Shown piece after piece: positions 6,132 to 47,528 of a stretch of DNA of 64,000 nt (within the stretch, counting starts at the first letter, position 1; the number at the start of each line of letters is the position of its first letter). The notes under the pieces were generated by a model that did no database searches, was not told the DNA's origin, and saw nothing but the letters and a program-made list of their open reading frames with translations. Origin of the DNA: Candidatus Woesearchaeota archaeon (GTDB taxonomy: Archaea; Nanobdellota; Nanobdellia; SCGC-AAA011-G17; GW2011-AR18); assembly GCA_964430545.1 (NCBI GenBank), contig CAYSFG010000035.1:4463-68462 (forward strand), given 5' to 3'. The position numbers were made by a program, and so were the translations under genes.

Positions 6132-6153
6132 ACTTTAAAAATGATATAATAAC

Positions 6154-6630
6154 ATGGGATTCATAGACTATAATGCAAATTTGGGATTATTTATACTGAT
6201 AATATTAATATCAGGAATAGCAATAGGACTTACTGTATTTTATCAAGCAAATTTTAAAGATATAAATTATAAATATGATACTAAAATAAGTGAATTAAAT
6301 AAAACATTTGAAAAATTATTAGGAACACAAGATGTATTAAACAAAACAAAAGAAGAACTAGATCTAAAAGCAAAAAGAGAAGAAGATTTATCAGGAAAAT
6401 ATACATCAACAAAAGAACAAAAAGAAAGACTACAAACAGAAAATTCAGGATTATCAAAAGATTTAGCAAACACAAGATCACAAGTTGATATACTTAAAGC
6501 ACAGATAGACCAATTAAATTTGAATATAGTTAGTTTACAAACAACAATATCAGATTTAACAAGCCAAAAAAATAATCTAAATACTATAGTAAACTGCTAC
6601 AGGAGTGCAGCACCAAATGCAAATTGTTGA
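6154..6630 (+). CDS. membrane-anchored coiled-coil protein
   Basis: N-terminal TM helix followed by a long heptad-like stretch rich in E/K/L/Q; lies in the Bat-like operon. Confidence 0.45.
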   Translation: MGFIDYNANLGLFILIILISGIAIGLTVFYQANFKDINYKYDTKISELNKTFEKLLGTQDVLNKTKEELDLKAKREEDLSGKYTSTKEQKERLQTENSGLSKDLANTRSQVDILKAQIDQLNLNIVSLQTTISDLTSQKNNLNTIVNCYRSAAPNANC

Positions 6631-7393: not shown

Positions 7394-7397
7394 AAAA

Positions 7398-9722
7398 ATG
7401 GTAAGTATGGAAGAAATACAAAAAAAATTTAAATTGATAAACTCTGAAGTTTCTAAAGTTGTAATTGGACAGGATAAAGTTGTTGAACAATTATTAGTAG
7501 CATTATTATGTAATGGGCATGTTTATTTAGAAGGATATCCGGGATTAGCAAAAACATTATTAGTAAAAACAATATCAAATATAATGGATTTAAAATTCTC
7601 AAGAATACAAGGTACACCAGACTTATTACCTAGTGATGTAACTGGAACTTATATAATAGATGAAAGCAAAGGAAAAAAAGAGTTTAAATTTCAACCAGGA
7701 CCAATATTTGCAAATATAATATTATTAGATGAAGTTAATAGAGCCACCCCTAAGACCCATTCATCAATATTAGAAGCAATGCAAGAAAGACAAGTAACTG
7801 TAGGAAATGCAACATATAAATTAGAAGAACCGTTCTTTGTATTAGCAACTGGAAATCCTATTGAGCAAGAAGGAAGCTTAACATTAGATCAATCAGTTTT
7901 TATAAATGGAGAATTAAAAACAGGACATGAATTATTAGAACAAGTTAAAAATAATAATACCCAAATATTAAAAAATGGAGATTTTGATTTATATAAACTT
8001 GAAGATTCATATACATATTCTTTAAATTCTAATGGAAAACTTAAGAAAAGTGAATGTTATCTTTATACTTTGCCTTATGATGATGAAATTATAAAGGTAA
8101 AAACTAGAATTGGAAGAGAAATTAAAGTTTCTAAAAATCATCCTTTTTTAATAAATGAAAAAGGAGAAATAAAATGGAAGAAAGCAGAAGAACTAATTGA
8201 AGGAGATTATTTAGTTACACCGGCAGCATTAAATGATGAGTATCATACAGAAGAAGTAGTTTCACATTTAGGTATATTAAATGAATTAAATAAAAAGTAT
8301 AAAATAATAAAATATGAAGAATATTTAAAATTAAAAGAACATAAAGAAATAAGCTTACCATCTTGGATATTAAATTTAAACTCTGAACTAAGAAAAGAAT
8401 TTTTGAAAACATTTATTTCATTAGAAGGATGCATAAGAGATAATATGATAAAAGTTTCACAAGCAAATAAAAATAACATTAATATTTTATCTTATTTATT
8501 ATTAAAAGAGGGTATAATTTCATTGTTTTTTGAAAAGAAGAAAAAAAATCATAGTGATTATGTAATAAAAATACAAGGAGAAGACTTTTTAAAATATTTA
8601 TTAAATATAGGATGGCTAAACGAAGAAACAAGAATTGAATGGTTAAATAGAGCAAAAAATGGAAAATTTTCATCTTTCAGAGTAATACCTACACCAAGAA
8701 ATCTTGTATTAAGACTTGTAAATTTATTAGGAATAAATTTAGTTCATACATACAAAAATCGAAAAAACTTTGTTAATAGGGAATGGTATTGTGGATATAA
8801 ATCTATAAAAGAAGGAAGAGAAAATATTTCCTTAGATATGTTTAAATTAATGCTTAATGGAATGGAAAAGGAGATAAATCTTAGAAATAATGTTGATTTA
8901 AATAATATTTCTAAGTCAAAAGATATAAAAAATACGGCGATTTTATGTGGCTTATCTATTAAAGATATTGAAACAAATATTAACATACCTTTTAATAAAA
9001 TTTCTAATTATTATGAAAATAATAATAGCAAACATTCACAACAAATAATAACTTGTGTTAAAAATGAATTTTTAAACAGACTCGAAGAAGCAAAATCTAT
9101 ATTAAACTATTTAAAAAAATTAGCAACAGAAGAAGTGTTATATGACAAAATAGAAAAATTATCTTATGAACCATATAATGGATTAATATTTGGATTGACA
9201 GTTCCAGGATTGCAGAATTATATTGGAGGTTATGGTGCTTGTGGTATTAATCATAATACTTTTAAATTATCAGAGGCACAAGTTGATAGATTTTTATTTA
9301 AAATAAATGTAGAATATCCTAAAATAGAAGAAGAATTAGAAATAGTTAGTAAATACAGTGAAATAACACCAGCTGAGATAAAAATAAAAACAGTATTTAC
9401 AAGTGAAGAATTAATAAAACTACAATCTTATGCAAAACAAATACCTATAGCAAAAGATATATTAAAATATGCTGTAGATTTAGTTGTTAGTACAAGAAAT
9501 AATAAACAATTAATTGAATATGGGGCAAGTCCAAGAGCTAGCATATCTTTAATAATGGCTGGAAAAGCAAGAGCATTAATTAATGGAAGAAAATATGTAA
9601 GTAAAGATGATATTAATGTAATGGCCTTACCTGTATTAAGACACAGAATAATAATCAGCTTTGAAGCAGAAAGACAAAATATGACAGAAGACGATGTGAT
9701 AACTAAATTAATTAAGAAATAA
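7398..9722 (+). CDS. MoxR-family AAA+ ATPase interrupted by an intein
   Basis: Walker A 'GYPGLAKT'. The extein junctions rejoin to '...ATGNPIEQEG|TFKLSEAQVDRF...', which resembles the conserved MoxR block NPIEQEGTYPLPEAQLDRF. The protein is 774 aa against about 310-320 aa expected for MoxR. Confidence 0.85.
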   Translation: MVSMEEIQKKFKLINSEVSKVVIGQDKVVEQLLVALLCNGHVYLEGYPGLAKTLLVKTISNIMDLKFSRIQGTPDLLPSDVTGTYIIDESKGKKEFKFQPGPIFANIILLDEVNRATPKTHSSILEAMQERQVTVGNATYKLEEPFFVLATGNPIEQEGSLTLDQSVFINGELKTGHELLEQVKNNNTQILKNGDFDLYKLEDSYTYSLNSNGKLKKSECYLYTLPYDDEIIKVKTRIGREIKVSKNHPFLINEKGEIKWKKAEELIEGDYLVTPAALNDEYHTEEVVSHLGILNELNKKYKIIKYEEYLKLKEHKEISLPSWILNLNSELRKEFLKTFISLEGCIRDNMIKVSQANKNNINILSYLLLKEGIISLFFEKKKKNHSDYVIKIQGEDFLKYLLNIGWLNEETRIEWLNRAKNGKFSSFRVIPTPRNLVLRLVNLLGINLVHTYKNRKNFVNREWYCGYKSIKEGRENISLDMFKLMLNGMEKEINLRNNVDLNNISKSKDIKNTAILCGLSIKDIETNINIPFNKISNYYENNNSKHSQQIITCVKNEFLNRLEEAKSILNYLKKLATEEVLYDKIEKLSYEPYNGLIFGLTVPGLQNYIGGYGACGINHNTFKLSEAQVDRFLFKINVEYPKIEEELEIVSKYSEITPAEIKIKTVFTSEELIKLQSYAKQIPIAKDILKYAVDLVVSTRNNKQLIEYGASPRASISLIMAGKARALINGRKYVSKDDINVMALPVLRHRIIISFEAERQNMTEDDVITKLIKK
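7875..9257 (+). mobile_element. intein (461 aa) with probable LAGLIDADG-type homing endonuclease domain inside the MoxR ATPase
   Basis: Block A 'SLTLDQSVFINGE' begins immediately after EQEG. Block B-like 'KVSKNHPFL'. Endonuclease-like 'FLKTFISLEGCI'. C-terminal 'GINHN' is followed by Thr (+1). Removing the insert restores a contiguous MoxR. Confidence 0.75.
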
Positions 9723-9731
9723 ATTCAGTCT

Positions 9732-10583
9732 ATGGTAATACAAACAGATTTTCTAAGACAATTGGATAAATTTAACTTAGTAATACATAAAAAAGTAGCA
9801 TCAGGTTTTATTGGCGATAGAAGAGCAAATTTTACAGGATCAGGATTAATATTTAAAGATTATTCAACTTATGTACCAGGAGATGATTTTAAACATATAG
9901 ATTGGCTAGTTTATGGGAAGACAGATAAATTATATGTGAAAAGATATGAAGAAGATAGAAACTTAACAATACATATATTATTAGATATAAGTGGAAGCAT
10001 GAATTTTGGAACTAAAATTAAAAAATATGAATTTGGGAGTATGATAGCATTAGGATTTAGTTATATAGCAATGAAAAATAATGAAAAATTTGTATTAAGT
10101 ACATTTGATGATAAATTAGAATTTTTTAAACCAAAAAAAGGAGCAAGACAATTAGCTGCAATATTAAATTATTTAAATAGTAAAACAGCAAAGGGAATAA
10201 GCAGCTTTGAGCAATCATTAATTAGTTATAAAAGTTTAGTAAACTCAAGAGCAATGATTATAATAATATCAGATTTTTTTTATGATATAGAACAAATAAA
10301 GACAATATTACATAAGTATAAGAATAATAAAATAAAATTAATACAGGTTTTAGATTCAGTAGAAAAAAAAATGAATTTAGATGGAGAATATAATTTAGTT
10401 GATCTTGAAAGTGATAATAAAATGCATACTTATATAGATCCATTAGTAAGACAAGAATATTTAAAAAGATTAGAAGAACATAATACTAAAATAATAAATT
10501 CTTGTGCTGAAGTTAAAGCAGACTTTTATACTGTTAATAATGAAGAAAACATATTTGATGTATTTTATAGAATATTAAATTAA
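9732..10583 (+). CDS. DUF58 family protein (vWA-like, MoxR partner)
   Basis: 'YVPGDDFKHIDWLVYGKTDKLYVKRYEEDRNLTIHILLDISGSM' matches the DUF58 signature; lies immediately downstream of MoxR. Confidence 0.75.
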   Translation: MVIQTDFLRQLDKFNLVIHKKVASGFIGDRRANFTGSGLIFKDYSTYVPGDDFKHIDWLVYGKTDKLYVKRYEEDRNLTIHILLDISGSMNFGTKIKKYEFGSMIALGFSYIAMKNNEKFVLSTFDDKLEFFKPKKGARQLAAILNYLNSKTAKGISSFEQSLISYKSLVNSRAMIIIISDFFYDIEQIKTILHKYKNNKIKLIQVLDSVEKKMNLDGEYNLVDLESDNKMHTYIDPLVRQEYLKRLEEHNTKIINSCAEVKADFYTVNNEENIFDVFYRILN

Positions 10584-13089: not shown

Positions 13090-15159
13090 ATGTGTGGAAT
13101 AATAGGAGTATTTGGGGATAAAAATTCAAGAAAACTTGTTCAGAAAGAATTAGAGTTAATTAATAATAGGGGCAGAGATGGAAAATTTTTTATAAGATTA
13201 GATAATGATTCTAGCGTTGGACATTGTTTACATGCTGTAGTTGGAAAGTTAAAACAACCATTAAAAGCTAAAGGAATATTTTTAGCAAATTGTGAAATAT
13301 ATAATTGGAAAGAATTAAGTTCAGAATATCTAATAAAATCTGAAAACGATGCTGATTTATTTTTTAAATTAATTGAAAAAATTGGATTAGAAGAAACTTT
13401 AGAATTAGTTGATGGGGATTATGCTGGATGTTATATTATTAATAATAAATTATATTTATTTAAAGATTTATTAGGTGTAAAACCGTTATGGTATAGTTTT
13501 AATAAAAAATTTGTATTTGCTTCTGAGAAAAAAGTTCTTGAGAATTTAGGATGTGAAAAAATATATGACCTTAGCCCTAGAATGATTTTAATTTATAACA
13601 TTAAAAATAGTAAATTAACTTTTATTAATAGAAAATTTATAGAACTTAATAAAAATGAGAAAGAATATCCTATAATAAAAAAAGAAACATTAGGATTATT
13701 AATAAATGCAATATCAAAAAGAATACCTGACAGCAAATTTGGAGTAATGTTCTCCGGCGGAATAGATTCTGTTTTTATAACATTAATATTAAAACAATTA
13801 AGAGTTAAATTTAATTGTTATACTTGTATTGTAGAAGATGGCAATTTTAACAAGGCAGAAGATCTTATATATTCTGAAAAAATAGCTAAAGAATTAGGAT
13901 TAAAATTAAAAATTATAAAGGTTCAATTAAAAGATATTAAAAAAGCTTTAAAAATAGTTCCTATAACTATAGAATCTAATAATGTTACGAAAGTTAGTGT
14001 TGCATTACCTTTTTATTTTATATCTAAAAAAGCAAAAGAAGATGGTTGTAAAGTATTAATGTCTGGATTAGGAAGTGAAGAAATATTTGCAGGATATGAA
14101 AGACATAAAAGAAGTTTAGATATAAATAAAGAATGTTATTCAGGATTATTATGGCTTTATGAAAGAGATTTATACAGAGATGATGTAATAACAATGTATA
14201 ATAGTGTTGAATTAAGAGTCCCATTTCTTGACTTAACGTTAGTAAAATATGTTTTGAATATAGATCAAAAATATAAAATTAATAATGAGAATAATAAAAT
14301 AATTTTAAGAGAAATAGCTTTTGGATTAGGGTTAAAAAAAGAATATGCTTACAGGAAAAAAAGAGCAGCACAGTATGGTGGAAATTTTGATAAAGCCATA
14401 GATAAATTAGCTAGATTAGAAAATGCTAAAAGTAAATCTGAATATTTATATAAATATTATCATAAACCTAATTTGAAATTAGGTGTATTATATTCTGGTG
14501 GAAAAGATAGTAATTATTCTATGTATATAATGCAAAAACAGAATTATGAAATAAAATGTTTAATAAGTTTAAAAAGTTTAAATAAAGATTCATATATGTT
14601 TCATACTCCTAATATAAATTTTGTAAAATACCAAAGTGAAGCTTTAGAAATACCTATATTAATACAAGAAACTAAAGGAGAGAAAGAAAATGAATTAGAA
14701 GATATGAAAAATATTTTATTAAAAGCTAAAGAAAAATATGGATTGCAAGGTATAGTAACTGGGGCCTTATATTCCAATTATCAAAGGGACAGAATAGAAA
14801 AAATATGTGATTCAATAGGTCTAAAAGTATTTTCCCCGTTATGGCATAAAGAACAATTACAAGAACTTAAAGAGATTATAAATGAAGGATTTGAAGTTAT
14901 AATAATAAGAATAGCTGCAGATGGACTAAATAAAAACTGGTTGGGAAGAAAATTAGATTTTAAAGCTGTTGAAGAATTGGAAAGGTTATATTTGAAAAAT
15001 GGACTAAATATTGCAGGTGAGGGTGGCGAATTTGAGACATTTGTTTTAAATGGCCCTAATTTTAAAAAAATAATTCATATAGAAAAGTCTAAAATAAAAA
15101 TGGAATCTGAAAATTGTGGAGATTTAATTATTGAAAAAATTGGATTAAAAGATAAATGA
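13090..15159 (+). CDS. fusion protein: class-II glutamine amidotransferase + asparagine-synthetase-like PP-loop domain fused to a Dph6/MJ0570-type ATP pyrophosphatase (diphthine-ammonia ligase-like) domain
   Basis: N-terminus 'MCGIIGVF' (Cys2 nucleophile) and 'GHCLHAVVG...CEIYNWKEL'; PP-loop 'SGGIDS' about residue 222. A second PP-loop 'YSGGKDS' about residue 470 plus 'GEGGEFETFVLNGPNF' is the Dph6/MJ0570 hallmark. Confidence 0.7.
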   Translation: MCGIIGVFGDKNSRKLVQKELELINNRGRDGKFFIRLDNDSSVGHCLHAVVGKLKQPLKAKGIFLANCEIYNWKELSSEYLIKSENDADLFFKLIEKIGLEETLELVDGDYAGCYIINNKLYLFKDLLGVKPLWYSFNKKFVFASEKKVLENLGCEKIYDLSPRMILIYNIKNSKLTFINRKFIELNKNEKEYPIIKKETLGLLINAISKRIPDSKFGVMFSGGIDSVFITLILKQLRVKFNCYTCIVEDGNFNKAEDLIYSEKIAKELGLKLKIIKVQLKDIKKALKIVPITIESNNVTKVSVALPFYFISKKAKEDGCKVLMSGLGSEEIFAGYERHKRSLDINKECYSGLLWLYERDLYRDDVITMYNSVELRVPFLDLTLVKYVLNIDQKYKINNENNKIILREIAFGLGLKKEYAYRKKRAAQYGGNFDKAIDKLARLENAKSKSEYLYKYYHKPNLKLGVLYSGGKDSNYSMYIMQKQNYEIKCLISLKSLNKDSYMFHTPNINFVKYQSEALEIPILIQETKGEKENELEDMKNILLKAKEKYGLQGIVTGALYSNYQRDRIEKICDSIGLKVFSPLWHKEQLQELKEIINEGFEVIIIRIAADGLNKNWLGRKLDFKAVEELERLYLKNGLNIAGEGGEFETFVLNGPNFKKIIHIEKSKIKMESENCGDLIIEKIGLKDK

Positions 15160-20181: not shown

Positions 20182-22830
20182 ATGGAAAATTCTGAAATAG
20201 AAAAAAGGAAAGAGAAATTTTTAAATTATTTTAAAGGAAGATATGATTTATTACAATACTTAATATTATTTATAATATTGATATTAGGTATTTATGTAAG
20301 AATACAACCTTTAGATAAATTAATTGATCCTACAACAGGAAAATATATTACTATAGAATTGGATTCTACTTTATTTTTAAGATATGCTACTTATATTGCA
20401 GAACATGGAAAATTATTTACCCATGATGTTATGAGATATTATCCGTTAGGTAATGAAGTTTCAATTGGTGTTTTTACATCATATTTTGTAGCTTATTTAT
20501 GGAAATTTTTAAATACATTTATTCCAACTATATCAATTGAATATGTTAATAATCTTTATCCAGTAATAGCAATGGTAATAATGACTATATTCTTATTTTT
20601 ATTAATAAGAAGGTTATTTGACTGGAGAGTTGGTTTGTTAAGTTCTTTACTAATAAATGTAAATCCTGGATTTTTATTCAGAAGCTTAGGCGGAAGCACA
20701 GATCATGATATGTTAGGAATAATGTTTATAATTATGGCATTTTATTTTTATGTCACAGGATTACAAACTACTAAGATAAAAAATACTGTTATATTTGGCA
20801 TACTAACTGCTGTAATTGTTACACTTGCTTATTTAAATGGAGGATCTATACAATTTTTTTATTTTACAATAATGGCTTTTAGTTTATTAGAATTATTATT
20901 AGGAAAATTTAATAAAAAAGACTTAGGACTATTTACTACATTTGTTATTACACTTACAATATTATTATTATCTACAGGAAGAATAACATTCTCAAGTTTG
21001 GCAACATCAATAAGTACAATGCCATTATATCTTTTATTATTTGCTGGTTTAATTTATCATTATATATTTGATAAAAATGCAAAATATTTTTACTTTGTAA
21101 AGAAATATGAAAAAATATTTGATAAAGTGCCTCCAAATATACTAGCTATAATAACTGCTTTTATATTTTCATTATTATTTTTAATAATCTTCTACGGTTA
21201 TAATACAATAATCCATATTTTTTCTGGTTTATATTATCAGATATTTAAACCATTTTCTGCGACTAGATGGGTATTAACTGTTGCAGAAAATAGAAGTACC
21301 GTAATTAAAGATTGGATAGGGCAGTATGGTAAGTTTTTAATCTATACATCTGTAATAGGATCAATATTATTATTTTATGAAGCTGTGAAAAAGTTAAAAT
21401 CTTACAAAACACTTACTATTACTTATATTATTTTTATTTTTACTTATTTTATATCAAGATATGATAATTCAGGTACTTTTGCTATAACTTCAGGTCTTTC
21501 TAAATTTTTATTATTATTTTCAGTATTATTAATAATTTTTGTAATTACTTATTATTATTTTAATACCTATAATAAAGATAAGGAAGAGTTTAAAAATATT
21601 TTAGAAATAAATAAAAAATATTCATTGATATTATTTTGGTTTATAATTATGACATTTATAGCAACTACAGCTATAAGATTTTTATTTGAATTAGCACCTA
21701 TAATAGTTATATTAAGCTCGTTTTTTATAATATATTTATTTGATTTATTTATTAATAGAAAAGAAAAATTTATAAGATATAGTGGATTGATACTTCTTGC
21801 ATTAGTTTTATTTAGTCCATTTAGTTTTGCAAGAGGTATAGTTTTTGATCAATATAATGAAGTTTACAATGTTGCAAGATTTACAGGTCCTGCATATAAT
21901 CAACAATGGCAGCAAACAGGAAAATGGGTAAGGGAAAATACACCTATTAATGCAATATTTGCACACTGGTGGGATTATGGATATTGGGTACAAAGTGGTT
22001 TTGAAAGAGCAACAGTAACAGATGGTGGAAACTTTATAGGCTGGTGGAACTATTTAATGGGGAGATATGTTTTAACCTCACAAACAGATGAAGAACCTTT
22101 GAAATTTTTATATGCTCATAATGTAACTAATCTATTAATTATACCTGATGAAATAGGAAAATATCCTGCTTATTCAAGTATTGGAAGTGATCTTAATTAT
22201 GACAGGCTTTCTTATATTCCTACATTTGCTTTAGATGATAGACTAACACAAAAAACAAGAAATTCAACTGTAATATATTATACTGGAAGTTTTGGATTTG
22301 ATGAAGATTTACAATTTAATGGAAAAATATTGCCTAGAAATTCAGCGGGTGTTGCTGGAGTTATGGTTACATTAAGTAATGATGTTAATGGTCAAATAAA
22401 TGGATTAGAACAGCCTGTAGCAATAGCTGGGCATAATAATGAAAGATATAATTTAAAAATGAGTTGTTTATACTTAGAGAAACCATACTTTTTTGATAAT
22501 TATGATATAGACGCATGTTTAAGAATAATACCTACTTTTACTGATAATAATCAAGTTAATGCAATTGGAACTGGATTTTATCTATCAAAAAAAGTTTTAC
22601 ATAGTTTAGTTGGAAGATTATATATATTAAATATAAATTCTAAATATTTTGAATTAATATATGATGAAACAACAAGAGGAATGCCATTAGCTTATTATCA
22701 AGGAAGATTAATAGGACCACACAAAGTATGGAAAGTAAATTATCCTAAAGATTTTAAACTTACTGCTGAAGAATATAATTTTTACACAAGAACTGACTAT
22801 CCTGATATAAACTTAACAAAACCCGTATAA
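20182..22830 (+). CDS. aglB: archaeal oligosaccharyltransferase AglB (STT3 family)
   Basis: Diagnostic 'WWDYGYW' motif (residues about 590); N-terminal 13-TM region; 882 aa typical of AglB. Confidence 0.85.
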   Translation: MENSEIEKRKEKFLNYFKGRYDLLQYLILFIILILGIYVRIQPLDKLIDPTTGKYITIELDSTLFLRYATYIAEHGKLFTHDVMRYYPLGNEVSIGVFTSYFVAYLWKFLNTFIPTISIEYVNNLYPVIAMVIMTIFLFLLIRRLFDWRVGLLSSLLINVNPGFLFRSLGGSTDHDMLGIMFIIMAFYFYVTGLQTTKIKNTVIFGILTAVIVTLAYLNGGSIQFFYFTIMAFSLLELLLGKFNKKDLGLFTTFVITLTILLLSTGRITFSSLATSISTMPLYLLLFAGLIYHYIFDKNAKYFYFVKKYEKIFDKVPPNILAIITAFIFSLLFLIIFYGYNTIIHIFSGLYYQIFKPFSATRWVLTVAENRSTVIKDWIGQYGKFLIYTSVIGSILLFYEAVKKLKSYKTLTITYIIFIFTYFISRYDNSGTFAITSGLSKFLLLFSVLLIIFVITYYYFNTYNKDKEEFKNILEINKKYSLILFWFIIMTFIATTAIRFLFELAPIIVILSSFFIIYLFDLFINRKEKFIRYSGLILLALVLFSPFSFARGIVFDQYNEVYNVARFTGPAYNQQWQQTGKWVRENTPINAIFAHWWDYGYWVQSGFERATVTDGGNFIGWWNYLMGRYVLTSQTDEEPLKFLYAHNVTNLLIIPDEIGKYPAYSSIGSDLNYDRLSYIPTFALDDRLTQKTRNSTVIYYTGSFGFDEDLQFNGKILPRNSAGVAGVMVTLSNDVNGQINGLEQPVAIAGHNNERYNLKMSCLYLEKPYFFDNYDIDACLRIIPTFTDNNQVNAIGTGFYLSKKVLHSLVGRLYILNINSKYFELIYDETTRGMPLAYYQGRLIGPHKVWKVNYPKDFKLTAEEYNFYTRTDYPDINLTKPV

Positions 22831-26456: not shown

Positions 26457-27206
26457 TTGTTTGATAATTCTATGAAAAAACCATATTATTCAATTATAAT
26501 ACCTGCATATAACGAAGAAAAAATAATAAGTTCAACAATAAATAAAGTATATTTATTTTTAAAAAAACAAAAAGTACCATTTGAATTGATTATAACTGAT
26601 GATGGAAGCAAAGACAGCACGCTTAAAATAGCTGAAGATCTTTCTAAAAAACATAAAGAAATAAGGATTGTAAGCAATAAAATAAATCAAGGCAGAGGGG
26701 CTGCTTTAAATAATGCTTTTAAAAATTCAAAAGGAGAAGTTTTAGTTTATATAGATGCTGATTTAGCAATAGATTTAAATTTATTTCCTAGATTAATGAA
26801 AGCAATAAAAGAGCAAGGGGCTGATATAGCTGTAGGATCAAAACATTTGAAAGAATCACAAGTAGAATATCCTAAATTAAGGAGAATATTTAGCAAATGT
26901 TATGCTTTTCTTGCTTATTTATTATTAAGATCAAAAATCAAAGATTATCAATGTGGATTTAAAGCTTTTAAAAGAGAAAAAATATTACAATTATTACCAT
27001 ATTTAAAAAATAAAGGATGGGCTTGGGATACTGAAGTAATAATAAAAGCACAATGGATGGGATGGAAAGTTATAGAATTACCTGCTAAAGTAATAAATAT
27101 TTATGGAAGGGAAAGTAAAGTTAAATTGTTTAATGATGTAAAAAGAATGGGATTAGATTTATTAAATTTGTATTTTGAAAAGAAAAAATTTATGAAAAAT
27201 ATTTAA
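26457..27206 (+). CDS. GT2 polyprenol/dolichyl-phosphate glycosyltransferase (Dpm1/AglD-like)
   Basis: 'YSIIIPAYNEE', 'TDDGSKDST', 'YIDADL' (DxD), 'QCGFKAF'. Confidence 0.75.
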   Translation: MFDNSMKKPYYSIIIPAYNEEKIISSTINKVYLFLKKQKVPFELIITDDGSKDSTLKIAEDLSKKHKEIRIVSNKINQGRGAALNNAFKNSKGEVLVYIDADLAIDLNLFPRLMKAIKEQGADIAVGSKHLKESQVEYPKLRRIFSKCYAFLAYLLLRSKIKDYQCGFKAFKREKILQLLPYLKNKGWAWDTEVIIKAQWMGWKVIELPAKVINIYGRESKVKLFNDVKRMGLDLLNLYFEKKKFMKNI

Positions 27207-27233
27207 TTGATATATATTCTATAAAATATAGGT

Positions 27234-27250
27234 TATATATATATATATAT
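27234..27250. repeat. (TA)8 dinucleotide microsatellite abutting a TTTAAATA TATA-like box
   Basis: 'tatatatatatatatat' followed by 'ttaaatac'; lies 48 nt upstream of the likely TTG start (27298) of the secreted-protein gene. Confidence 0.8.
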
Positions 27251-27285
27251 TTAAATACTTAAAAAAATATAATAATATAAAAATA

Positions 27286-27996
27286 GTGGTGATTATATTG
27301 GAACATAAATATAAAATTTTAACAGGAACGATATTCTTATTTATTGGATTATCAATGTTATTTTTTGTATCAAATACAATAACAGGAAATACAGCAAGAG
27401 AATCAACAGGAAATACAATAGGAAATACAACAGGAAATACAATAGGAAATACAATACCAAGAATAATAAATGTAAGTGCATATGCTGGTTATATGGCGGA
27501 TTGTGAACCTTCAGAAACTGGTTTTATAGGTTTCCGTAGTTGTCCTAGAAGAAATGATTATACTATAAATGATAATGATTGGTTGAAATTTTATTTGAGT
27601 ACGAATATACCAATGCATTCATGCTGGATTAGTTCTTTACATGATAGATATGGAAAAACAAATAAGCCTACAGCTCTAATTACCCCCAAAATTATTATGC
27701 ATAAAATTACCTCTACTTATTTTTATGTATCAATATATTCAAATGATGGCGTTCAACTATTATTTAATCAAAACCCAATTAATCCCTATGAATATTTCCC
27801 TTTATTGCAACAATCAATTTTAAAACCTGGAAGTAAATCATGGGATACTATAGAATTTGAATGCATTTCGGCAGACTCACAAGGTCAGATAACATTACCA
27901 GTTATTTCTTATAAAAAATCAAGATCAAATCATGGTGGGTGGTTATCATTATTTTGTCCAGAAAATGGAAATAATCGTGCAGATTGTGGGAAATAA
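27286..27996 (+). CDS. secreted/surface Cys-rich protein with N-terminal signal-anchor (pilin-like class III signal?) and GNTx tandem repeats; paralog of 38164-38667
   Basis: SD GGTGAT at 27288-27293. The likely true start is TTG 27298, giving 'MEHKYKILTGTIFLFIGL...TGNTA', which aligns with 'MENKNKLYLGSVFLVLGL...TGNAA' of the paralog. Six Cys; 'NVS' and 'NTT' sequons; ends 'DCGK'. Confidence 0.55.
   Translation: MVIILEHKYKILTGTIFLFIGLSMLFFVSNTITGNTARESTGNTIGNTTGNTIGNTIPRIINVSAYAGYMADCEPSETGFIGFRSCPRRNDYTINDNDWLKFYLSTNIPMHSCWISSLHDRYGKTNKPTALITPKIIMHKITSTYFYVSIYSNDGVQLLFNQNPINPYEYFPLLQQSILKPGSKSWDTIEFECISADSQGQITLPVISYKKSRSNHGGWLSLFCPENGNNRADCGK
27385..27456 (+). repeat. in-frame 12-nt tandem repeat (ggaaatacaaya; 4 contiguous copies plus one nearby) encoding GNT[IT] repeats
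   Basis: Exact or near-exact 12-mers at 27409, 27421, 27433 and 27445, and a diverged copy at 27385. Confidence 0.75.
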
Positions 27997-28114
27997 ATTA
28001 ATTATTTTTAGTTTATAGTTAAATAAAAATAAACTTCTTTATATCTAATAATTTATACCGTTTGTTATATTTTATATTAGTAAAACATATAAAACTTAAA
28101 GAAATTATAAAACT

Positions 28115-29653
28115 ATGCTAAATAATAAAAAAGTAAATTATTCTTTAATACTAATAATATTATTAACATTATTCCTAAGATTATTTTGGTTAAATCATAC
28201 AATATTAGAAGGAGATATGTTTAGAGATTTAACTATTGCCGATAATATTATTAAAGGAAATATTAGATTAGTTGGAATAACTGCAGGGATAGAAGAAACA
28301 TCAACTCAACAATCATTTGGTCCTATAATGTATTATATACTTGCTTTTTTAATGTTAATATCTAAAAATCTTTTATTTATTGTAGGATTTGTGGCTTTAT
28401 TAAATTCATTAGCTGTGTTATTAACTTATTATTTTTGTAGAAAATATTTTGATGAAAAAACTGCGATAATTGCTTCTTTATTATATGCTATAAACCCATG
28501 GGCTATATATATGAGCGATATATTCTGGAATCCCAATTTTTTACCGATATTTTCAATATTATTATTTTATTTTTTATTTAAATTAATTATAAATGAAAAT
28601 AATTGGGCTTTTCCTATAACCAGCTTTTTAATAGCAATAATGCTAAACTTTCACCTAACACCATTATTTTATTTACCAATATTAATTTTATCAATATTAT
28701 TATTTAGAAGAGATATAAAACTTAAATATTATTTTTATAGTTTAATAACTTTTTTATTACCATTTATACCCTTTATTTATTTTAATTTAAAACACGGATA
28801 TTCATTACTAGGACCAGTATTATATGGTTCAGTAAGAGAATCAAGCACATTTTTTACAAGTTTAATAGAATCTATAGGAATACCTATAATGTTAGCTACT
28901 AATTATTTAGGAAAGTATGTTTATGGAGAAAGTTTTATTTTTTATAATAAAATAATGTATTATCTGGTTTTATTTATAACTGCTATAACAGTATTATTAT
29001 TTGGATTAGGATTATTATATTTAATTTTACAAATAAGAAAAGATATAATTTTAAAGAATAATACTAAGGTAAAATATTATTTAATTTTATTTATTATAAT
29101 TATACCTATGTTATTACAATTTATAAGATTTAGCAATATAAGCCCACACTACTATTTTATGTTATATCCAATACAATTTGTATTACTAGGTTTAATAATT
29201 AAAAAATTAATAGAATATAAAAATCTTAAAAAAATAACTTATTTTATACTTGTTTTAATAATTTTAATCAATTTATTTACGATATATGCCTTACATGATT
29301 ATATAGAAAAAAATGGAAGCACAAAATATGGGGAATTTAGTATATCTTATAAAAATAAACAAGAAGTAATTAATTTTATAGTCAATGATTCAAAAGAACA
29401 ACCAATAAAAATACTATTTTATGGAAGAAGTTATAAAAGTTTTAAATACTTATTTGATAATCAAAACATTAAAATAGATTATAAAACTATAGATAATAGT
29501 GATAATATTAAAAATTTTAATGGTTATTATTTAATATTAGACAAAGTATCTTATCATAGAGTAATATTAAATAAAGAACAAGAAGACTTTTTTAATAATT
29601 TAAAGATACATTATATTATAAGAAGCGTTGATTTATACAAAATTAAAGAATAA
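28115..29653 (+). CDS. polytopic membrane protein, GT-C-fold (ArnT/PMT-like) glycosyltransferase candidate
   Basis: 512 aa; about 11 TM helices in the N-terminal two-thirds, then a soluble C-terminal domain. Confidence 0.45.
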   Translation: MLNNKKVNYSLILIILLTLFLRLFWLNHTILEGDMFRDLTIADNIIKGNIRLVGITAGIEETSTQQSFGPIMYYILAFLMLISKNLLFIVGFVALLNSLAVLLTYYFCRKYFDEKTAIIASLLYAINPWAIYMSDIFWNPNFLPIFSILLFYFLFKLIINENNWAFPITSFLIAIMLNFHLTPLFYLPILILSILLFRRDIKLKYYFYSLITFLLPFIPFIYFNLKHGYSLLGPVLYGSVRESSTFFTSLIESIGIPIMLATNYLGKYVYGESFIFYNKIMYYLVLFITAITVLLFGLGLLYLILQIRKDIILKNNTKVKYYLILFIIIIPMLLQFIRFSNISPHYYFMLYPIQFVLLGLIIKKLIEYKNLKKITYFILVLIILINLFTIYALHDYIEKNGSTKYGEFSISYKNKQEVINFIVNDSKEQPIKILFYGRSYKSFKYLFDNQNIKIDYKTIDNSDNIKNFNGYYLILDKVSYHRVILNKEQEDFFNNLKIHYIIRSVDLYKIKE

Positions 29654-31669: not shown

Positions 31670-32491
31670 ATGGTAGATATAAAAAAGGTTTTATTTGTAA
31701 ATCCTAAACCTCAGGTTTCTCAGGTAATAATGGAAGCAACACAATATCCACCACTAGGAATAGCTTATACTGCGGCTTATTTAGAAACTCATGGAATAGA
31801 ATGTAAAATTATAGATGCAGATATTTTAAATTTAGAAAATGAAGAAATTTATGAAAATATAAAAAATTTTAATCCTGATATGGTAGGAATAACATTTAAT
31901 GTAGCAAAAGTACAGGAAGCAATAACAATATCAACTTGGATAAAAAATACTTTAGGAAAAATAGTTATTTTAGGAGGGCCATCTTCATCAGGAGATGTTA
32001 AAGAAGTATTAAAAAAATCAAAAGCAGATTGTATAGTAAAATCAGAAGGAGAAATAGTTACATTAAATATTGTACAAACAAAAGCAGATTTTAAAAACAT
32101 AAAAGGTATAGTTTATTTAAATGGTGAAGAGTTAATAGTAACACCAGACCAAGAACCAATAAGAGACTTAGATTCATTACCTATACCTGCATATCATTTA
32201 TTACCTCCATTAAAATTATATAAAACCAGGGCAAGAAAAATGCCAGTAGTTCCTATGGTCACAGAAAGAGGATGCCCCTATGGTTGTATGTTTTGTAATT
32301 CTGCAAAAACAGGATTCAGACCAAGAAGCCCAGAAAATGTTGTAAAAGAAATAGAAACATTAATCAATAAATTTGGGGTGAAACAAATAGATATCTTAGA
32401 TGATAATTTTACTTTTAATTTAGATAGAGCACATAAAATATGTGATTTAATATTGGAAAAAAAAAATAAAAATATTAATAACTTTTCCTAA
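31670..32491 (+). CDS. B12-binding radical SAM protein, N-terminal fragment (gene split by frameshift in an A10 run)
   Basis: B12-binding domain 'KVLFVNPKP...PPLGIAYTAAYLETHGIECKIIDADI'; radical SAM 'ERGCPYGCMFC' (CxxxCxxC). Confidence 0.6.
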   Translation: MVDIKKVLFVNPKPQVSQVIMEATQYPPLGIAYTAAYLETHGIECKIIDADILNLENEEIYENIKNFNPDMVGITFNVAKVQEAITISTWIKNTLGKIVILGGPSSSGDVKEVLKKSKADCIVKSEGEIVTLNIVQTKADFKNIKGIVYLNGEELIVTPDQEPIRDLDSLPIPAYHLLPPLKLYKTRARKMPVVPMVTERGCPYGCMFCNSAKTGFRPRSPENVVKEIETLINKFGVKQIDILDDNFTFNLDRAHKICDLILEKKNKNINNFS

Positions 32492-32534: not shown

Positions 32535-33080
32535 ATGGCAAAAGCTGGAGTTTATAGGACAGGAATAGGAATAGAATCAGGAGAACAAAAAATAGTAGAC
32601 GGAATAAAAAAATCATTAGACTTAGAAAAAGTAAGAATAGCAATGAAATGGTTAAGAAAATATGGAATAATCTCATTTGGATATTTCCAATTTGGCTTAC
32701 CTGGAGAAACATTTGACTCAATGCAAAAAACAATAGATTTTGCAAGAGATATAAACCCAAACTGGGCAAATTTTGGAGTAACAACACCATTACCAGGTAC
32801 TTTATTATATAAAATGTTAAAAGATACTAATAAATTAAATACTTCTGAAGATCAAAATATATCTACTGGATTTTATTCAATAAAAAAAGGATATGGTGAT
32901 ACAGAAACTTTAAAAATGCAGGATGTTTTAGATTATCAAAGAAAAGCATGGATGAAGTTTTATTTCAGACCAAGTAAAATGTTTGATGTACTTAAAACAA
33001 TAAAATCCTATGGAGAATTAAGGTGGACATTATCTCTAGCTTTTCCTATATTAAAAGGAATTATAAATAAAGGAAATTAA
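32535..33080 (+). CDS. B12-binding radical SAM protein, C-terminal fragment
   Basis: An alternative frame upstream of the annotated Met continues 'FPNGLRADRLTEELVAKMAKAGVYRTGIGIESG', the canonical radical SAM core, contiguous with the upstream fragment after a 1-nt shift at 32457-32466. Confidence 0.6.
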   Translation: MAKAGVYRTGIGIESGEQKIVDGIKKSLDLEKVRIAMKWLRKYGIISFGYFQFGLPGETFDSMQKTIDFARDINPNWANFGVTTPLPGTLLYKMLKDTNKLNTSEDQNISTGFYSIKKGYGDTETLKMQDVLDYQRKAWMKFYFRPSKMFDVLKTIKSYGELRWTLSLAFPILKGIINKGN

Positions 33081-34717: not shown

Positions 34718-34827
34718 ATTTTAGTGTTATAATAATATTTTAATTAAAAAATTAAATTTTTATATTATATAAATAACCATTTTAATTTATTAGTAAAACA
34801 TATAAAACTTGTAGAAATTCTTAAAAC

Positions 34828-36120
34828 ATGCTAAAAATATATAATGGGAAGAAAAAAGTATTAATATTGGGTGGTGGGTTGTCTGGATTAGCAGCAGCTG
34901 ATAGATTGTTGGATACTCAAGATTATGAAATTTTAATTTTAGAAAAAGCTTCATTTTTAGGGGGATTAGCCTCAAGTTTTCTGAAAGATGGAGAAGAAAT
35001 ACCTAGGTTTAATCATCATATTGTAAGTAGTAATAGGATAACATTAGATTATTTAAAAAGATATAATTTAATGGGTGAAAATATCTGGAAAAAAGTAAAA
35101 ATGGCCATATGTGTATATGGAGAATTATATAATATAAATACTTTAATGGGTTTATTAAAATTTAAGTTTTTAAGTTTAAAAGGAAGAATAAAATTAGGCC
35201 TTTTTGGAGCTTACTTAATATTTTTAATGGATCCAGAAAAAATACCAGATAATATGGATGCAGAAAGTTGGTTATTAAAATATGCAGGAAAAGAAGTCAC
35301 TGAAAAAGTATGGTATAATTTATATGCTAGAAATAAATTTAATTTAAACTTAAAACAGATATCTGCAAAACAATTTGCTAATAGATTATATGAAAAAGAA
35401 GGATATGATGATTTTACTTACCCTATGAAAGGAATACAGGGAATGATAGATGGATTGGAAAGAGATATAAAAGATAAAAAAGGAAATATACTTATGTCTG
35501 TAAATATAAAAGAACTCGATATAGAAAATAAAACAATTAAGTATATTGTAGATGATAAAGAAGAAAAATATTATTTTGATATTATAATTAATACAATACC
35601 TGTACCAGAATTATTAAAATTTACAAAAGGATTACCGAAAGAATATATAAAAGAAATTAAAAAATTAAGATATGTGCCTGTTGTTGGATTATGTTTTGGT
35701 ACAAAAGAATATTTAGACAAAGATAATTATTGGATAAATCTAATAAATGAAAGAATACATGTAATCTACCAACATTCATTATTAATAGATAAATATAAAT
35801 CAAAAGTATCATGGTGTATAAGATATGGTGGAAGTGAAGAAGATTTAATTAAAACAGATGAAGATATAAAAGAAAAATATTTGGAAGTAATTAAAAAATA
35901 TTTTCCAGAAATGAAATTAGAATGGTGTATGGTATTTAGAGAAAAATATGCAGAACCAATATATGATAAAGAGTATATAAAATATTGCCCTAAATATAAA
36001 ACACCAATACCTTATTTATTTAACTCAGGAATACAAGTAACATTCCCTAAAATAAGAAATATGAATGTGGCTTTAGAATCTGGAATAAAAGTTGCAGAAA
36101 TAATTATGGGGAAAAAATGA
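34828..36120 (+). CDS. FAD/NAD(P)-binding oxidoreductase (amine-oxidase / phytoene-desaturase / UDP-galactopyranose-mutase-like Rossmann family)
   Basis: N-terminal dinucleotide-binding 'VLILGGGLSGLAAADRLL...ILEKASFLGGLA'. Confidence 0.6.
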   Translation: MLKIYNGKKKVLILGGGLSGLAAADRLLDTQDYEILILEKASFLGGLASSFLKDGEEIPRFNHHIVSSNRITLDYLKRYNLMGENIWKKVKMAICVYGELYNINTLMGLLKFKFLSLKGRIKLGLFGAYLIFLMDPEKIPDNMDAESWLLKYAGKEVTEKVWYNLYARNKFNLNLKQISAKQFANRLYEKEGYDDFTYPMKGIQGMIDGLERDIKDKKGNILMSVNIKELDIENKTIKYIVDDKEEKYYFDIIINTIPVPELLKFTKGLPKEYIKEIKKLRYVPVVGLCFGTKEYLDKDNYWINLINERIHVIYQHSLLIDKYKSKVSWCIRYGGSEEDLIKTDEDIKEKYLEVIKKYFPEMKLEWCMVFREKYAEPIYDKEYIKYCPKYKTPIPYLFNSGIQVTFPKIRNMNVALESGIKVAEIIMGKK

Positions 36121-38103: not shown

Positions 38104-38118
38104 TATATATATATATAT
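38104..38118. repeat. (TA)7 microsatellite abutting a TTTAAATA TATA-like box
   Basis: 'tatatatatatatat' followed by 'ttaaataac'; lies 46 nt upstream of the ATG at 38164. Same architecture as 27234-27257. Confidence 0.8.
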
Positions 38119-38163
38119 TTAAATAACTATTAACTTAAAATATAAAATATAAGAGGTGATTAT

Positions 38164-38667
38164 ATGGAAAATAAAAATAAATTATATTTAGGTAGTGTAT
38201 TTTTAGTTTTAGGATTATTTGCTATATTTTTAAGTAGTAGTTATACTGGAAATGCAGCATTTAATAGATTACCAAGTACACCAAGTTCAGGAAATCAAGC
38301 TGGAATTGCTAATTTAGCAGGATCTAAATTTGAATGTATAAAACTAAGTGCTCCACTTGCTTGGACTTTTGATAATAATGGTAATTTAAATTCAACACTT
38401 AATTCTTCCCAAGTTGATGCTAGACTCACAGGTTATGGAAATTGTAGAAGAACTGGTTATAATTCACTGTGTCTAATAGATAGGCATAAAATGACTGTGG
38501 ATAAAACTAACAATCAATGCCCCCTGTACGGCACTAATATAAAATATATCTATACTAGTGATTCGATAGAAACATGTGATAATAAACCTAAAAGAATTGA
38601 TATAACATGTCGTGTAGGTTATAGTCAAGATATTTCTTATATGGATGAAGTTTTATGTTGTAAATAA
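38164..38667 (+). CDS. secreted/surface Cys-rich protein with N-terminal signal-anchor; paralog of 27286-27996
   Basis: SD GGTGAT at 38155-38160. 'MENKNKLYLGSVFLVLGLFAIFLSSSYTGNAA'. Eight Cys; 'NST' and 'NSS' sequons; ends 'LCCK'. Confidence 0.55.
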   Translation: MENKNKLYLGSVFLVLGLFAIFLSSSYTGNAAFNRLPSTPSSGNQAGIANLAGSKFECIKLSAPLAWTFDNNGNLNSTLNSSQVDARLTGYGNCRRTGYNSLCLIDRHKMTVDKTNNQCPLYGTNIKYIYTSDSIETCDNKPKRIDITCRVGYSQDISYMDEVLCCK

Positions 38668-45133: not shown

Positions 45134-46627
45134 TTATTTTTTAACTTCTAATATTAAAACTATAGGCTGAGCTTTATTTTCAGATAAATAAAACGATGCA
45201 ACTGGCTTTAATTTATCTTGATTAGTTTTAACACCTTCTATAAATTTATCAGGCATTTGATTAAAAAAAGATAGTACAACATACTTAATTTTTGGATTAG
45301 AAAAAGCTTCATTAATATCCACAGCATTATTTTGTCTTTCAGAATGATACTGAATCTCTGCAGAAGTAGCTGGAGAAATATAACCCTCATCTTTTGAAAG
45401 ATGTTGATTAAGCCATATACCTGCTTCCTTAACTTGCTTAAATGAATCAGCTTTTGAGATTATATTGGAGTTAGCCATTTCAATATTGGAATTAATAATA
45501 AAAACAATAATTAAAATAACTATAATAGTAGAAATGGATTTATTATACTTTCTTAATATATTATACATTTTTGATAATACTAAACCTGCTGCTAAAAATA
45601 AACCTACAAAAAAATTAAAATAATACCTCTCTTCAATATAATAACCATAGTTGATCTTTGCTGCAAATAAAATAGTTAAAACAATCCACAAAAATAAAAA
45701 TAATTTATTACCAAGAGCTTTATCTTTATTTTTAATAATAATATCCAAGCCAAGAAATATTTGTAATAAATATAAAAAACCTAAAATAGATAAAACCATT
45801 AAAATAATACCTTCAATAGAAAGAAAAGATTTTAATTGAGAAGTTAAAGAACTAATAAATGATCTTCCTAATGTTGTTCTAGTACCAAATGTCTGTAAAA
45901 AAAAAGCAATAGGAGAACCATAAGAAATATACTGCCAAATAATAAAAGGAATTATCAAAATAAAACTTATTAATGTACTTTTAATTAAATGTTTATTTTT
46001 AATAAAAGAAAATCTTTCAGTAATTATCAAATATAAAATAATTAGTATAGCAACTAAGGCATTTGTATACTTCATCAAAAATCCAAGAACTAAAGTTGGA
46101 ATTAATAACAAAGTGTAAATATTATTTTTATTATTTATATATCCTTTAAAGAAAAATAATATCGTTAACAACCAAAATGTTAATACTGGGACATCAACTA
46201 ATAACCTATATGAAAAAAATAAATGAGACCAAAATACAGCAGTAAAAATAGAAGCAAATAAAGCAGTAAGATCATCAAACATTTCTTTACCAATAAGATA
46301 AATGAGTATTATATTTGAAAAATAGAATAAACCCATAAATATTCTTATTCCTATTTCATTAATATTTAATTTAAAAAATAAAGCTGTTATTAATGAAAAT
46401 AAAATTGGTCTTATGGGACTAAATGTAGCTATTGGAAAATCCTTGGCTAGATATTTGGCATAATTAAGATAATCAGCTTCGTCAAACCACAAAGCTTGAG
46501 AAAATGTTTTTGTAAAATAATAAATGAAGTAAATTAATGATAATAACAAAATAATAAGAAATATTTTATTATAAATTGATTTATTATAAAATTCTCTAGA
46601 TTTTTTTATGATACTATTAATAATCAT
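45134..46627 (-). CDS. GT-C-fold membrane glycosyltransferase (GT39/GT83-like)
   Basis: 497 aa; about 12 TM helices; first loop 'WFDEADYLNYAK' (DE motif). Confidence 0.45.
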   Translation of the reverse strand: MIINSIIKKSREFYNKSIYNKIFLIILLLSLIYFIYYFTKTFSQALWFDEADYLNYAKYLAKDFPIATFSPIRPILFSLITALFFKLNINEIGIRIFMGLFYFSNIILIYLIGKEMFDDLTALFASIFTAVFWSHLFFSYRLLVDVPVLTFWLLTILFFFKGYINNKNNIYTLLLIPTLVLGFLMKYTNALVAILIILYLIITERFSFIKNKHLIKSTLISFILIIPFIIWQYISYGSPIAFFLQTFGTRTTLGRSFISSLTSQLKSFLSIEGIILMVLSILGFLYLLQIFLGLDIIIKNKDKALGNKLFLFLWIVLTILFAAKINYGYYIEERYYFNFFVGLFLAAGLVLSKMYNILRKYNKSISTIIVILIIVFIINSNIEMANSNIISKADSFKQVKEAGIWLNQHLSKDEGYISPATSAEIQYHSERQNNAVDINEAFSNPKIKYVVLSFFNQMPDKFIEGVKTNQDKLKPVASFYLSENKAQPIVLILEVKK

Positions 46628-46661
46628 ATATTTATACTTAATCTATAATTTATAATACTTT

Positions 46662-47528
46662 TTATTTAGTAGATTCAATCCTTGACCATATTTTATTAAA
46701 ATTTTGTTTCCTAATCTTTATTTTTATAAAAATCATAAACCACAAATAAAGACGAGCAAATAATAATAAAATAGTATAAATAAATTCTTTAGATTTTTTA
46801 GCATAAATAAAAACTTCTAAAAAACCTAATGATTCTGAAGCAAAAGACCTACGCATCTTAATATTAGATTTCGTAAAACTTCTTATTTGATAATAACCAC
46901 CAGCACTTCTAATTTTTTGATTAGTCCAATCCTTAAATGTAGTAGGATATTTAACATAAACTAAAGCATTAGGTGCATAGAAAATTTTATAACCTTTATC
47001 AAGAATAATATTTGAGATAATAGCATCATCAGATAAGGAATTTTCAGGAATGCTTCCAACAATATTCCTAATAGCCATAAGATAGCCTGTACAAACAAAA
47101 TTTTTACCACTTAATCTCAACTTATGGGCCATATTAGTAAGAACAAAAGACCAGTAGCCTAAAATATTATCTTTAGGATTTAAAGAAATAGGATGACCAG
47201 AAACAGCACCAACTTCTTTATTTGAAAAATAACTTAATAATTCTTTTAATGAATCTTTACCTACAAAAACATCACCATCTGTAAATATCATTATATCATT
47301 TTTATTTGTAAATTTTTTAAAAACTAAATTAAGGGCTGAAGGTTTTCCTTTGCTTTCATCTTGAATATGCAAAACATCCTTAAATCTCAAAAATTCATTC
47401 TTAGTTTCTAAATCAGGGCATACTACATAAATTTTATATTTTTTATTTAATTTTTGCTCTTTAAAAGAAGAAATAGCCTTAGCTATCGTGTTAGGTTCTT
47501 TATATGCAATAATAATAATACGAATCAT
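46662..47528 (-). CDS. GT2-like glycosyltransferase
   Basis: 'IIIIAYKEPNTI', 'FTDGDVF'; C-terminal TM helix. Confidence 0.55.
   Translation of the reverse strand: MIRIIIIAYKEPNTIAKAISSFKEQKLNKKYKIYVVCPDLETKNEFLRFKDVLHIQDESKGKPSALNLVFKKFTNKNDIMIFTDGDVFVGKDSLKELLSYFSNKEVGAVSGHPISLNPKDNILGYWSFVLTNMAHKLRLSGKNFVCTGYLMAIRNIVGSIPENSLSDDAIISNIILDKGYKIFYAPNALVYVKYPTTFKDWTNQKIRSAGGYYQIRSFTKSNIKMRRSFASESLGFLEVFIYAKKSKEFIYTILLLFARLYLWFMIFIKIKIRKQNFNKIWSRIESTK

Follow-up and report, generated by a model that had tools for sequence, protein, structure and literature searches.

Gene A lies on the plus strand of a 64,000-nucleotide stretch of DNA (the window, contig CAYSFG010000035.1) from a Candidatus Woesearchaeota archaeon, where its open reading frame (ORF) runs from 27286 (GTG) or 27298 (TTG) to 27996. 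It is a real gene, and its product is predicted to be a small exported or membrane-tethered protein. We consider it likely that protein A is an extracytoplasmic protein with its own TATA promoter, a Sec-type signal, a repeat spacer and a beta-rich Cys domain, and that gene B, located elsewhere in the window, codes for an unrelated passenger of the same cassette. This differs from an earlier reading of the DNA (the original prediction), in which A and B were paralogs of one Cys-rich family and A was an abundant glycosylated surface protein or pilin. Gene A comprises the following features.

27234 to 27257, plus strand: promoter of gene A, a (TA)n tract ((TA)8.5 at 27234-27250 according to Tandem Repeats Finder, TRF) running into the TATA box TTTAAATA (27250-27257).
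27288 to 27293, plus strand: Shine-Dalgarno (SD) sequence GGTGAT, 4 nucleotides (nt) ahead of the TTG codon.
27298 to 27996, plus strand: coding sequence of protein A, 232 amino acids (aa), with a TTG start and the stop codon TAA at 27994-27996.
27298 to 27396, plus strand: leader of A, residues 1-33, consisting of n-region MEHKYK, hydrophobic core I7-V24 and polar c-region SNTITGNTA.
27381 to 27454, plus strand: 12-bp tandem repeat encoding (T/I)GNT spacer units (TRF: period 12, 6.2 copies, 82% matches).
27454 to 27993, plus strand: globular domain of A, residues 53-232, with C69, C82, C109 and C189 conserved in homolog P0004 and C220 and C230 in a C-terminal extension.
28005 to 28009, plus strand: oligo-T run directly after the stop codon, read from the sequence; a possible archaeal termination signal, although this counts for little, T runs being frequent at 23% GC.

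Gene A can be regarded as real because its homolog P0004 is 30% identical over the whole mature domain (A residues 55-219, BLASTP E 7e-17), with invariant residues that include four cysteines, tryptophan and the motifs DWLKF, DTIEF and KSRxNHxGWxSLF, in which the last x is F or L. P0004 was the only real homolog of A recovered by an exhaustive HMMER search of 1.84 billion representative proteins (E 3e-7). The third hit in this search was set aside as spurious: it is a repeat protein of 1920 aa, P0005, in which the match extends over 44 residues (E 9e-5). A word-indexed search of 5.8 billion proteins returned A itself only, and with a profile built from A and P0004 it returned only self or P0004. 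The same profile gave nothing in species-representative genomes or viral contigs, and only the P0004 contig in the metagenome contigs of the Joint Genome Institute. For protein A there was no match at E <= 0.01 in Pfam, NCBIfam, PHROGs, PADLOC or the PDB sequences, and at E <= 10 only noise appeared. On these searches, A is placed in a two-member orphan family.

The hypothetical protein P0004, of 310 aa, comes from groundwater metagenomes (contigs L001-L005, about 25% GC). It resembles A in having a hydrophobic N-terminal segment, a low-complexity spacer and the four aligned cysteines. It differs in that its N-terminal part contains an additional domain of about 65-100 aa with cysteines, in that its spacer is S/D/G-rich and much longer, and in that it lacks both the C-terminal CPENGNNRADC extension of A and N-x-S/T sequons. 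Its gene looks leaderless, with a TATA box about 30 nt ahead of the ATG and no SD, whereas A has an SD; furthermore, the P0004 leader is unrelated to those of A and B, and its locus is not a glycan island. The neighbours of P0004 are AbiEii, AAA_14, CN_hydrolase and another Cys-rich protein. The gene just downstream of P0004 (L001 9192-10328, truncated by the contig end) encodes an N-terminal hydrophobic segment, many cysteines, three 'NAH(A)E..N.Y..(V/I)C' repeats and a Thr-rich linker. Genes for AbiEii-type nucleotidyltransferase toxins occur both at the edge of the window (267-950) and at L001 6647-7405, the latter separated from P0004 by two small called genes (about 600 nt) on its upstream side; their presence at both loci is probably a coincidence.

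The start codon and the expression signals of A were evaluated by comparison with gene B, which has the following features.

38110 to 38160, plus strand: promoter and 5' untranslated region (5'UTR) of gene B, with (TA)n, TATA box TTTAAATA (38118-38125) and SD GAGGTGAT (38153-38160).
38164 to 38667, plus strand: gene B, 167 aa, ATG start, 8 Cys; placed by six-frame search.

Upstream of A and B, the DNA aligns in register: (TA)n, TTTAAATA, about 30 nt, GGTGATTATAT and then the start codon, TTG in A and ATG in B. The exact 16-mer TATATATATTTAAATA is present at only two sites in the 64 kb, one upstream of A and one upstream of B, and the exact 11-mer GGTGATTATAT is likewise confined to A and B. 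Among 903 pairs of 70-nt upstream regions, A and B form the top pair, with a score of 63 against a mean of 20.1 +/- 5.3. Because the TTG of A stands in line with the ATG of B behind the identical GGTGATTATAT, the TTG start at 27298 chosen in the original prediction is well supported. The GGTGAT sequence just upstream adds to this, as does the codon-by-codon homology with B, which begins at B's ATG.

The cassette is unusual within the window. When 58 ORF starts were scanned, unit-leading genes mostly had a TATA-like box at -27 to -32 and no SD, and most of these genes look leaderless. A distal TATA box combined with an SD of at least 6 nt was found only for A (box 48 nt ahead of the TTG, GGTGAT) and B (box at -46, GAGGTGAT) among the 58 ORFs; here the anti-SD was taken as the usual CCUCC-type tail, since the window holds no rRNA gene. 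A distinctive expression signal of A is supported, and it is common to B. SD-like sequences in the window occur mainly ahead of internal operon genes (7398, 17926 and 33130) and of A and B. The second-best of the 903 upstream pairs is a 48-nt block at 28075-28122, which spans the DNA ahead of the GT-C gene at 28115 together with the first codons of that gene, and which is 88% identical to 34788-34835, ahead of an amine-oxidase-like gene at 34828. This shared block may be a common regulatory element or a conserved 5'UTR.

Read from TTG 27298, protein A starts with MEHKYKILTGTIFLFIGLSMLFFVSNTITGNTA, and protein B starts with MENKNKLYLGSVFLVLGLFAIFLSSSYTGNAA. The two leaders share 45% identity and 70% positives over 33 residues (BLASTP E 3e-6). 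Their Smith-Waterman score of 71 lies about 12 standard deviations above that of composition-preserving shuffles (20.5 +/- 4.2), none of which reached 71 in 500 trials. The N-terminal match reported earlier is thus far beyond chance. At the nucleotide level the leaders are 62% identical, and 5 of the 15 identical residues are encoded by different codons; the leader duplication is therefore old and not a recent conversion, with conservation of both the protein sequence and the signal. For the mature parts, on the other hand, the comparison of A with B gave a Smith-Waterman score of 30 against a shuffle mean of 30.2 +/- 5.2, and BLASTP aligned residues 1-33 only. With mature domains that are unrelated, A and B are not paralogs of one family, contrary to what had been proposed; what they have in common is residues 1-33 and the upstream DNA. 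The word-indexed search of 5.8 billion proteins returned no homolog of B. We also considered whether P0004 could have arisen by joining a B-like domain to an A-like one, prompted by the 'VLCCK' that ends both B and the first domain of P0004, and rejected this, as the Smith-Waterman score was 31 against a shuffle mean of 32.

In protein A, K4 and K6 are followed by a single hydrophobic segment, for which the Kyte-Doolittle hydropathy in a 19-residue window reaches a maximum of 2.22 at residues 7-25. Protein B reaches 2.2 at the same residues, and A, B and P0004 all have a short head containing Lys or Arg. No second hydrophobic segment was detected, with no window above 1.6 outside the N-terminus of A and likewise none in B and P0004. 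The layout of a Sec-type signal, i.e., a positive n-region and one hydrophobic segment, is therefore present in all three proteins, and an exported or membrane-inserted N-terminus, as originally proposed for A, is supported. Lipobox, Tat and C-terminal sorting signals are absent from A, which has neither an N-terminal Cys nor an RR motif and does not end in a hydrophobic segment. A hand-applied (-3,-1) rule points to candidate cleavage sites at G-N-T|A in A, at the aligned G-N-A|A in B and at V-N-A|G, a textbook site, in P0004. The signal of A may be cleaved by signal peptidase I near G-N-(T/A)|A or kept as an N-in/C-out anchor, and we lean slightly toward the anchor. In A, B and P0004 the segment comprises 22-27 uncharged residues with a low-complexity spacer directly after it, and a stalk that holds out an ectodomain makes most sense if that ectodomain is anchored. 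The signal anchor, which the original prediction had offered as an alternative, is one of these two supported readings.

The GNTx repeat tract noted earlier corresponds to the 12-bp tandem repeat with 6.2 copies, and it encodes TGNT-ARES-TGNT-IGNT-TGNT-IGNT-IPRI. The number of units varies: Logan contig L008, which covers the A locus over 0.9 kb, has one extra 12-bp unit, giving a protein of 239 aa (P0002), and is otherwise identical to the window. In the same run, contig L007 has one extra TA unit ahead of B's TATA box (around 1939-1942, corresponding to window 38104), while its DNA is otherwise 99.9% identical; along the 4.5 kb of the B locus, the identity between the window and the Logan contigs of two sequencing runs exceeds 99.9%. 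The repeat polymorphism suggests that A has a spacer of variable length. We considered whether the (TA)n tract could act as a phase-variation switch and regard this as unlikely, since it lies upstream of the TATA box and a length change keeps the TATA-to-start spacing. In A, B and P0004 alike, the transmembrane segment is followed by a low-complexity S/T/N/G/P stretch and then by a Cys-bearing domain.

The six cysteines ascribed to A are confirmed (residues 69, 82, 109, 189, 220 and 230) and amount to 2.6% of the residues, against a window mean of 0.86%. Cysteine counts are even in all three proteins, with 6 in A, 8 in B and 8 in P0004. The domain is probably disulfide-bonded, with two conserved disulfides plus one lineage-specific pair proposed. 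AlphaFold2 run on two-sequence alignments gave two models with predicted local distance difference test (pLDDT) values of 44 and 47, both mostly beta-strand at corresponding conserved blocks, which hints weakly at a beta-rich domain of about 180 aa.

These observations can be combined in a model of the locus. Gene A would be transcribed from its own TATA promoter as a short-leadered, SD-bearing and apparently monocistronic mRNA, translated from TTG 27298. The N-terminus would act as an ordinary Sec-type signal, in which a K-rich head is followed by a hydrophobic core of 18 residues and the polar tail TGNTA, placing the rest of the protein outside the membrane. There, a flexible (T/I)GNT spacer, the length of which would change by slipped-strand gain or loss of 12-bp units, would hold out a beta-rich domain of about 180 aa, carrying the two conserved disulfides and the lineage-specific pair. 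Gene B would be an unrelated Cys-rich passenger behind an old copy of A's promoter, 5'UTR, SD and signal cassette, and A and B would be co-expressed and co-exported surface proteins that are not members of one protein family. As for function, our best guess is that A is an envelope surface protein, possibly modified by the surrounding glycan machinery.

Several points weigh against this model. The signal peptidase I site in A is non-canonical, with Thr at -1, and export of A was judged from hydropathy and hand-applied rules. Each length change comes from a single assembly of one run and may reflect an artefact of assembly. With pLDDT 44-47 the structure models are unreliable, which makes 'beta-rich' a weak description, and a Foldseek search against the PDB, with no match at E <= 0.001, is meaningless on such models. 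Finally, A has only one homolog, and the neighbours of that homolog give no functional clue.

The location of A inside a glycosylation island, as originally described, was confirmed. The island extends from about 20.2 to 62.4 kb of the window and contains AglB/STT3 (20182-22830), four PMT_2 GT-C enzymes, many enzymes of glycosyltransferase family 2 (GT2) and of GT1 type, a Glycos_transf_4 (AglH-like) initiating enzyme and a flippase. It further contains methyltransferases, a deacetylase, a carbamoyltransferase, epimerases, an AsnB-type amidotransferase and radical S-adenosylmethionine (SAM) enzymes. The immediate neighbours of A are the following.

26457 to 27206, plus strand: upstream neighbour, a GT2 enzyme resembling polyprenyl-phosphate sugar synthases (Pfam Glycos_transf_2, E 1.9e-34).
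28115 to 29653, plus strand: downstream neighbour, a multi-pass GT-C glycosyltransferase of the PMT_2 type (Pfam PF13231, E 3.3e-9).

Among PDB sequences, the best match of the GT2 enzyme is the Dol-P-Man synthase of P. furiosus (5mlz, E 1.7e-22), and the GT-C enzyme has no match. This arrangement raises the possibility that A is not a general surface protein and instead serves its flanking GT2 and GT-C enzymes as a membrane-anchored accessory component or dedicated acceptor. The island has three neighbouring GT2 and PMT_2 pairs (26457-29653, 45134-47528 and 50532-52905), and only in the first is a gene, A, found exactly between the partners; in the other two (46662/45134 and 50532/51232) the genes are directly adjacent with nothing in between. 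The Thr-rich spacer of A would lie close to the membrane, in the zone in which the active site of a GT-C enzyme would work, and the genes for the GT4-family (AglH-like) initiating transferase and the flippase follow shortly after gene B. However, A has its own promoter and a distinct mode of expression, so that it is not operon-coupled to its neighbours, its sole homolog P0004 is not near any glycosylation gene, and PF13231 is a broad GT-C family for which a protein acceptor is not implied. We therefore consider a dedicated acceptor or accessory role unlikely.

A bolder version of the same idea is that GT2, A and GT-C form a self-contained cassette for protein O-glycosylation, in which the GT-C enzyme would move a lipid-linked sugar made by the GT2 enzyme onto the (T/I)GNT threonines, and in which the A/B leader cassette would mark the island's acceptors. 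We give this only a slim chance. To our knowledge, the enzymes of archaeal protein O-glycosylation have not been identified, and such a cassette, if true, would be a first genetic handle on this process. With a lipid-phosphate sugar synthase on one side, a GT-C enzyme on the other and a Thr-rich repeat at the membrane, A is a candidate acceptor that could be tested if the organism or its enzymes become tractable.

The case for N-glycosylation of A can be examined from the sequons. Two are present in A, N43-T-T in the repeat and N58-V-S just after it, compared to about 3.5 expected from composition, and A ranks 22nd of the 58 window ORFs by sequon density. The GNTI and GNTA units are not sequons. 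Protein B has two sequons, and P0004 has none among its 30 Asn. The sequons that the original prediction pointed out in A thus exist and are not enriched. Their numbers are at or below chance and lend no weight to the label 'glycosylated', for which location is the sole basis. For comparison, 13-49 sites were predicted in each of the putative surface glycoproteins of one cultivated DPANN archaeon (bioRxiv 10.1101/2023.10.27.564410).

A second alternative, in line with the class III (type IV pilin-like) signal proposed originally, is that A and B are type IV pilin-like subunits in which a prepilin peptidase cuts after G10, so that the N-terminus would form the filament core and the C-terminal domains would decorate it. 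A conserved hydrophobic N-terminus joined to unrelated C-terminal domains is the pattern of a pilin set, e.g., of Haloferax volcanii PilA1-6, which have an almost identical H-domain in common (PMC4371748). Moreover, Gly10 is common to A and B, and type IV filaments are frequent in DPANN archaea (bioRxiv 10.1101/2023.10.27.564410). The sequence around G10 does not fit, however. A regular expression for the FlaFind-type motif [KRDE][GA][ALIFQMVED][ILMVTAS]x3 had no match in the first 40 residues of A, B or P0004. The residue at -2 relative to G10 is T in A (K-I-L-T-G10|T) and L in B (K-L-Y-L-G10|S), both uncharged, whereas archaeal prepilin peptidases are reported to depend critically on a charge at this position (PMC4371748). 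With I7-L8 in A and L7-Y8-L9 in B ahead of G10, the site would lie inside the H-domain and not before it, and a cut there would leave, ahead of the polar SNT/SSS stretch, 14 hydrophobic residues in A (T11-V24) and 13 in B (S11-L23), compared to about 20 in an H-domain. Among the ORFs of the 64-kb window scanned with Pfam and NCBIfam, no gene for a prepilin peptidase (A24), PilB or PilC was found. A domain of about 180 aa behind a repeat spacer is also unlike the usual compact head packed directly on alpha-1. By the criteria testable in this analysis, A is not classed as a pilin, and we regard pilin-like subunits as distinctly improbable.

The remaining alternative, that the public annotation is correct and that translation starts at the ATG of Met20 (27355), which is the commoner start codon and is used in the NCBI-derived entry P0001 to give a 213-aa product without a functional signal, is highly improbable: neither an SD nor a TATA box precedes 27355, the 19 codons upstream encode residues that are conserved in B, with the ATG of B in line with the TTG, homolog P0004 likewise has an N-terminal hydrophobic segment, and only a cut-down hydrophobic stub, MLFFV, would be left. 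The Met20 start of the public entry deletes the signal, and secretome surveys would consequently miss protein A.

Other genes in the window support its archaeal origin and include a few unusual cases. Archaeal traits are a Dph6_archaeal equivalog above the curated cutoff, AglB, an AMP-phosphorylase-type protein and TATA-box promoters of the leaderless type; the window is uniformly very AT-rich, with 19-27% GC throughout. A scan of species-representative genomes with the PRPP synthase gave chance hits in AT-rich bacteria only, and the species is not among these representatives. From a GC content of about 23%, the lack of relatives and the groundwater homolog, the organism is probably DPANN-like. 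At 13090-15159, an asparagine-synthase-like amidotransferase is fused to archaeal diphthine-ammonia ligase Dph6. The cluster of BatA/DUF58/VWA-type genes at 1993-10583 includes an AAA-ATPase/VWA (MoxR/chelatase-like) protein (7398-9722) with an intein N-terminal splicing region at about residues 166-252. One gene, for a B12-binding radical-SAM protein, appears to be split into two ORFs. The first (31670-32491) encodes the B12-binding domain and the beginning of the radical SAM domain, and the second (32535-33080) the end of the latter; a frameshift, a pseudogene or an error in sequencing could account for this. We also considered A and B as precursors modified by the radical-SAM/SPASM enzymes of the island (44011 and 61256). 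Against this, the genes do not adjoin one another, A and B are large proteins with export signals, and enzymes of this kind are often found in clusters for sugar modification.

Taken by itself, A adds one more uncharacterised exported protein of an uncultured archaeon. In a window where most other genes look leaderless, one cassette of TATA box, 5'UTR, SD and signal serves two Cys-bearing passengers that are unrelated, which is a small, concrete example of modular assembly of archaeal surface-protein genes.

Of the known systems, the PilA1-6 set of Haloferax volcanii shares with A and B that several proteins have a conserved N-terminal hydrophobic segment while the rest is divergent, and the pilins are Sec-dependent and surface-exposed, as is predicted for A and B (PMC4371748). 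They differ in that the pilins carry a PibD site (RAVS or DAVS), with a charged -2 residue, before the H-domain. Such a site is missing in A and B, and no pilus machinery is encoded nearby.

Haloarchaeal S-layer glycoproteins have an O-glycosylated, membrane-proximal stalk that resembles the spacer of A in being a Thr-rich, low-complexity stretch placed between a membrane anchor and a folded extracellular region. The stalk is located at the C-terminal end of a very large protein in which sequons are numerous, whereas the spacer of A is N-terminal, has about 25 residues and belongs to a protein of 232 aa with two sequons. A further comparison can be made with the variable surface lipoproteins of mycoplasmas (Vlp/Vsa type). 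Unlike these, A and B lack a lipobox Cys, have an archaeal promoter and are the only two genes known, and their (TA)n tract is upstream of the TATA box, so that a change in length should not alter the TATA-to-start spacing; they show no sign of on/off switching. What the mycoplasma genes have in common with A and B is a conserved promoter, 5'UTR and signal cassette joined to divergent mature regions, together with in-frame tandem repeats of variable copy number in the mature region and a simple-sequence tract in the promoter.

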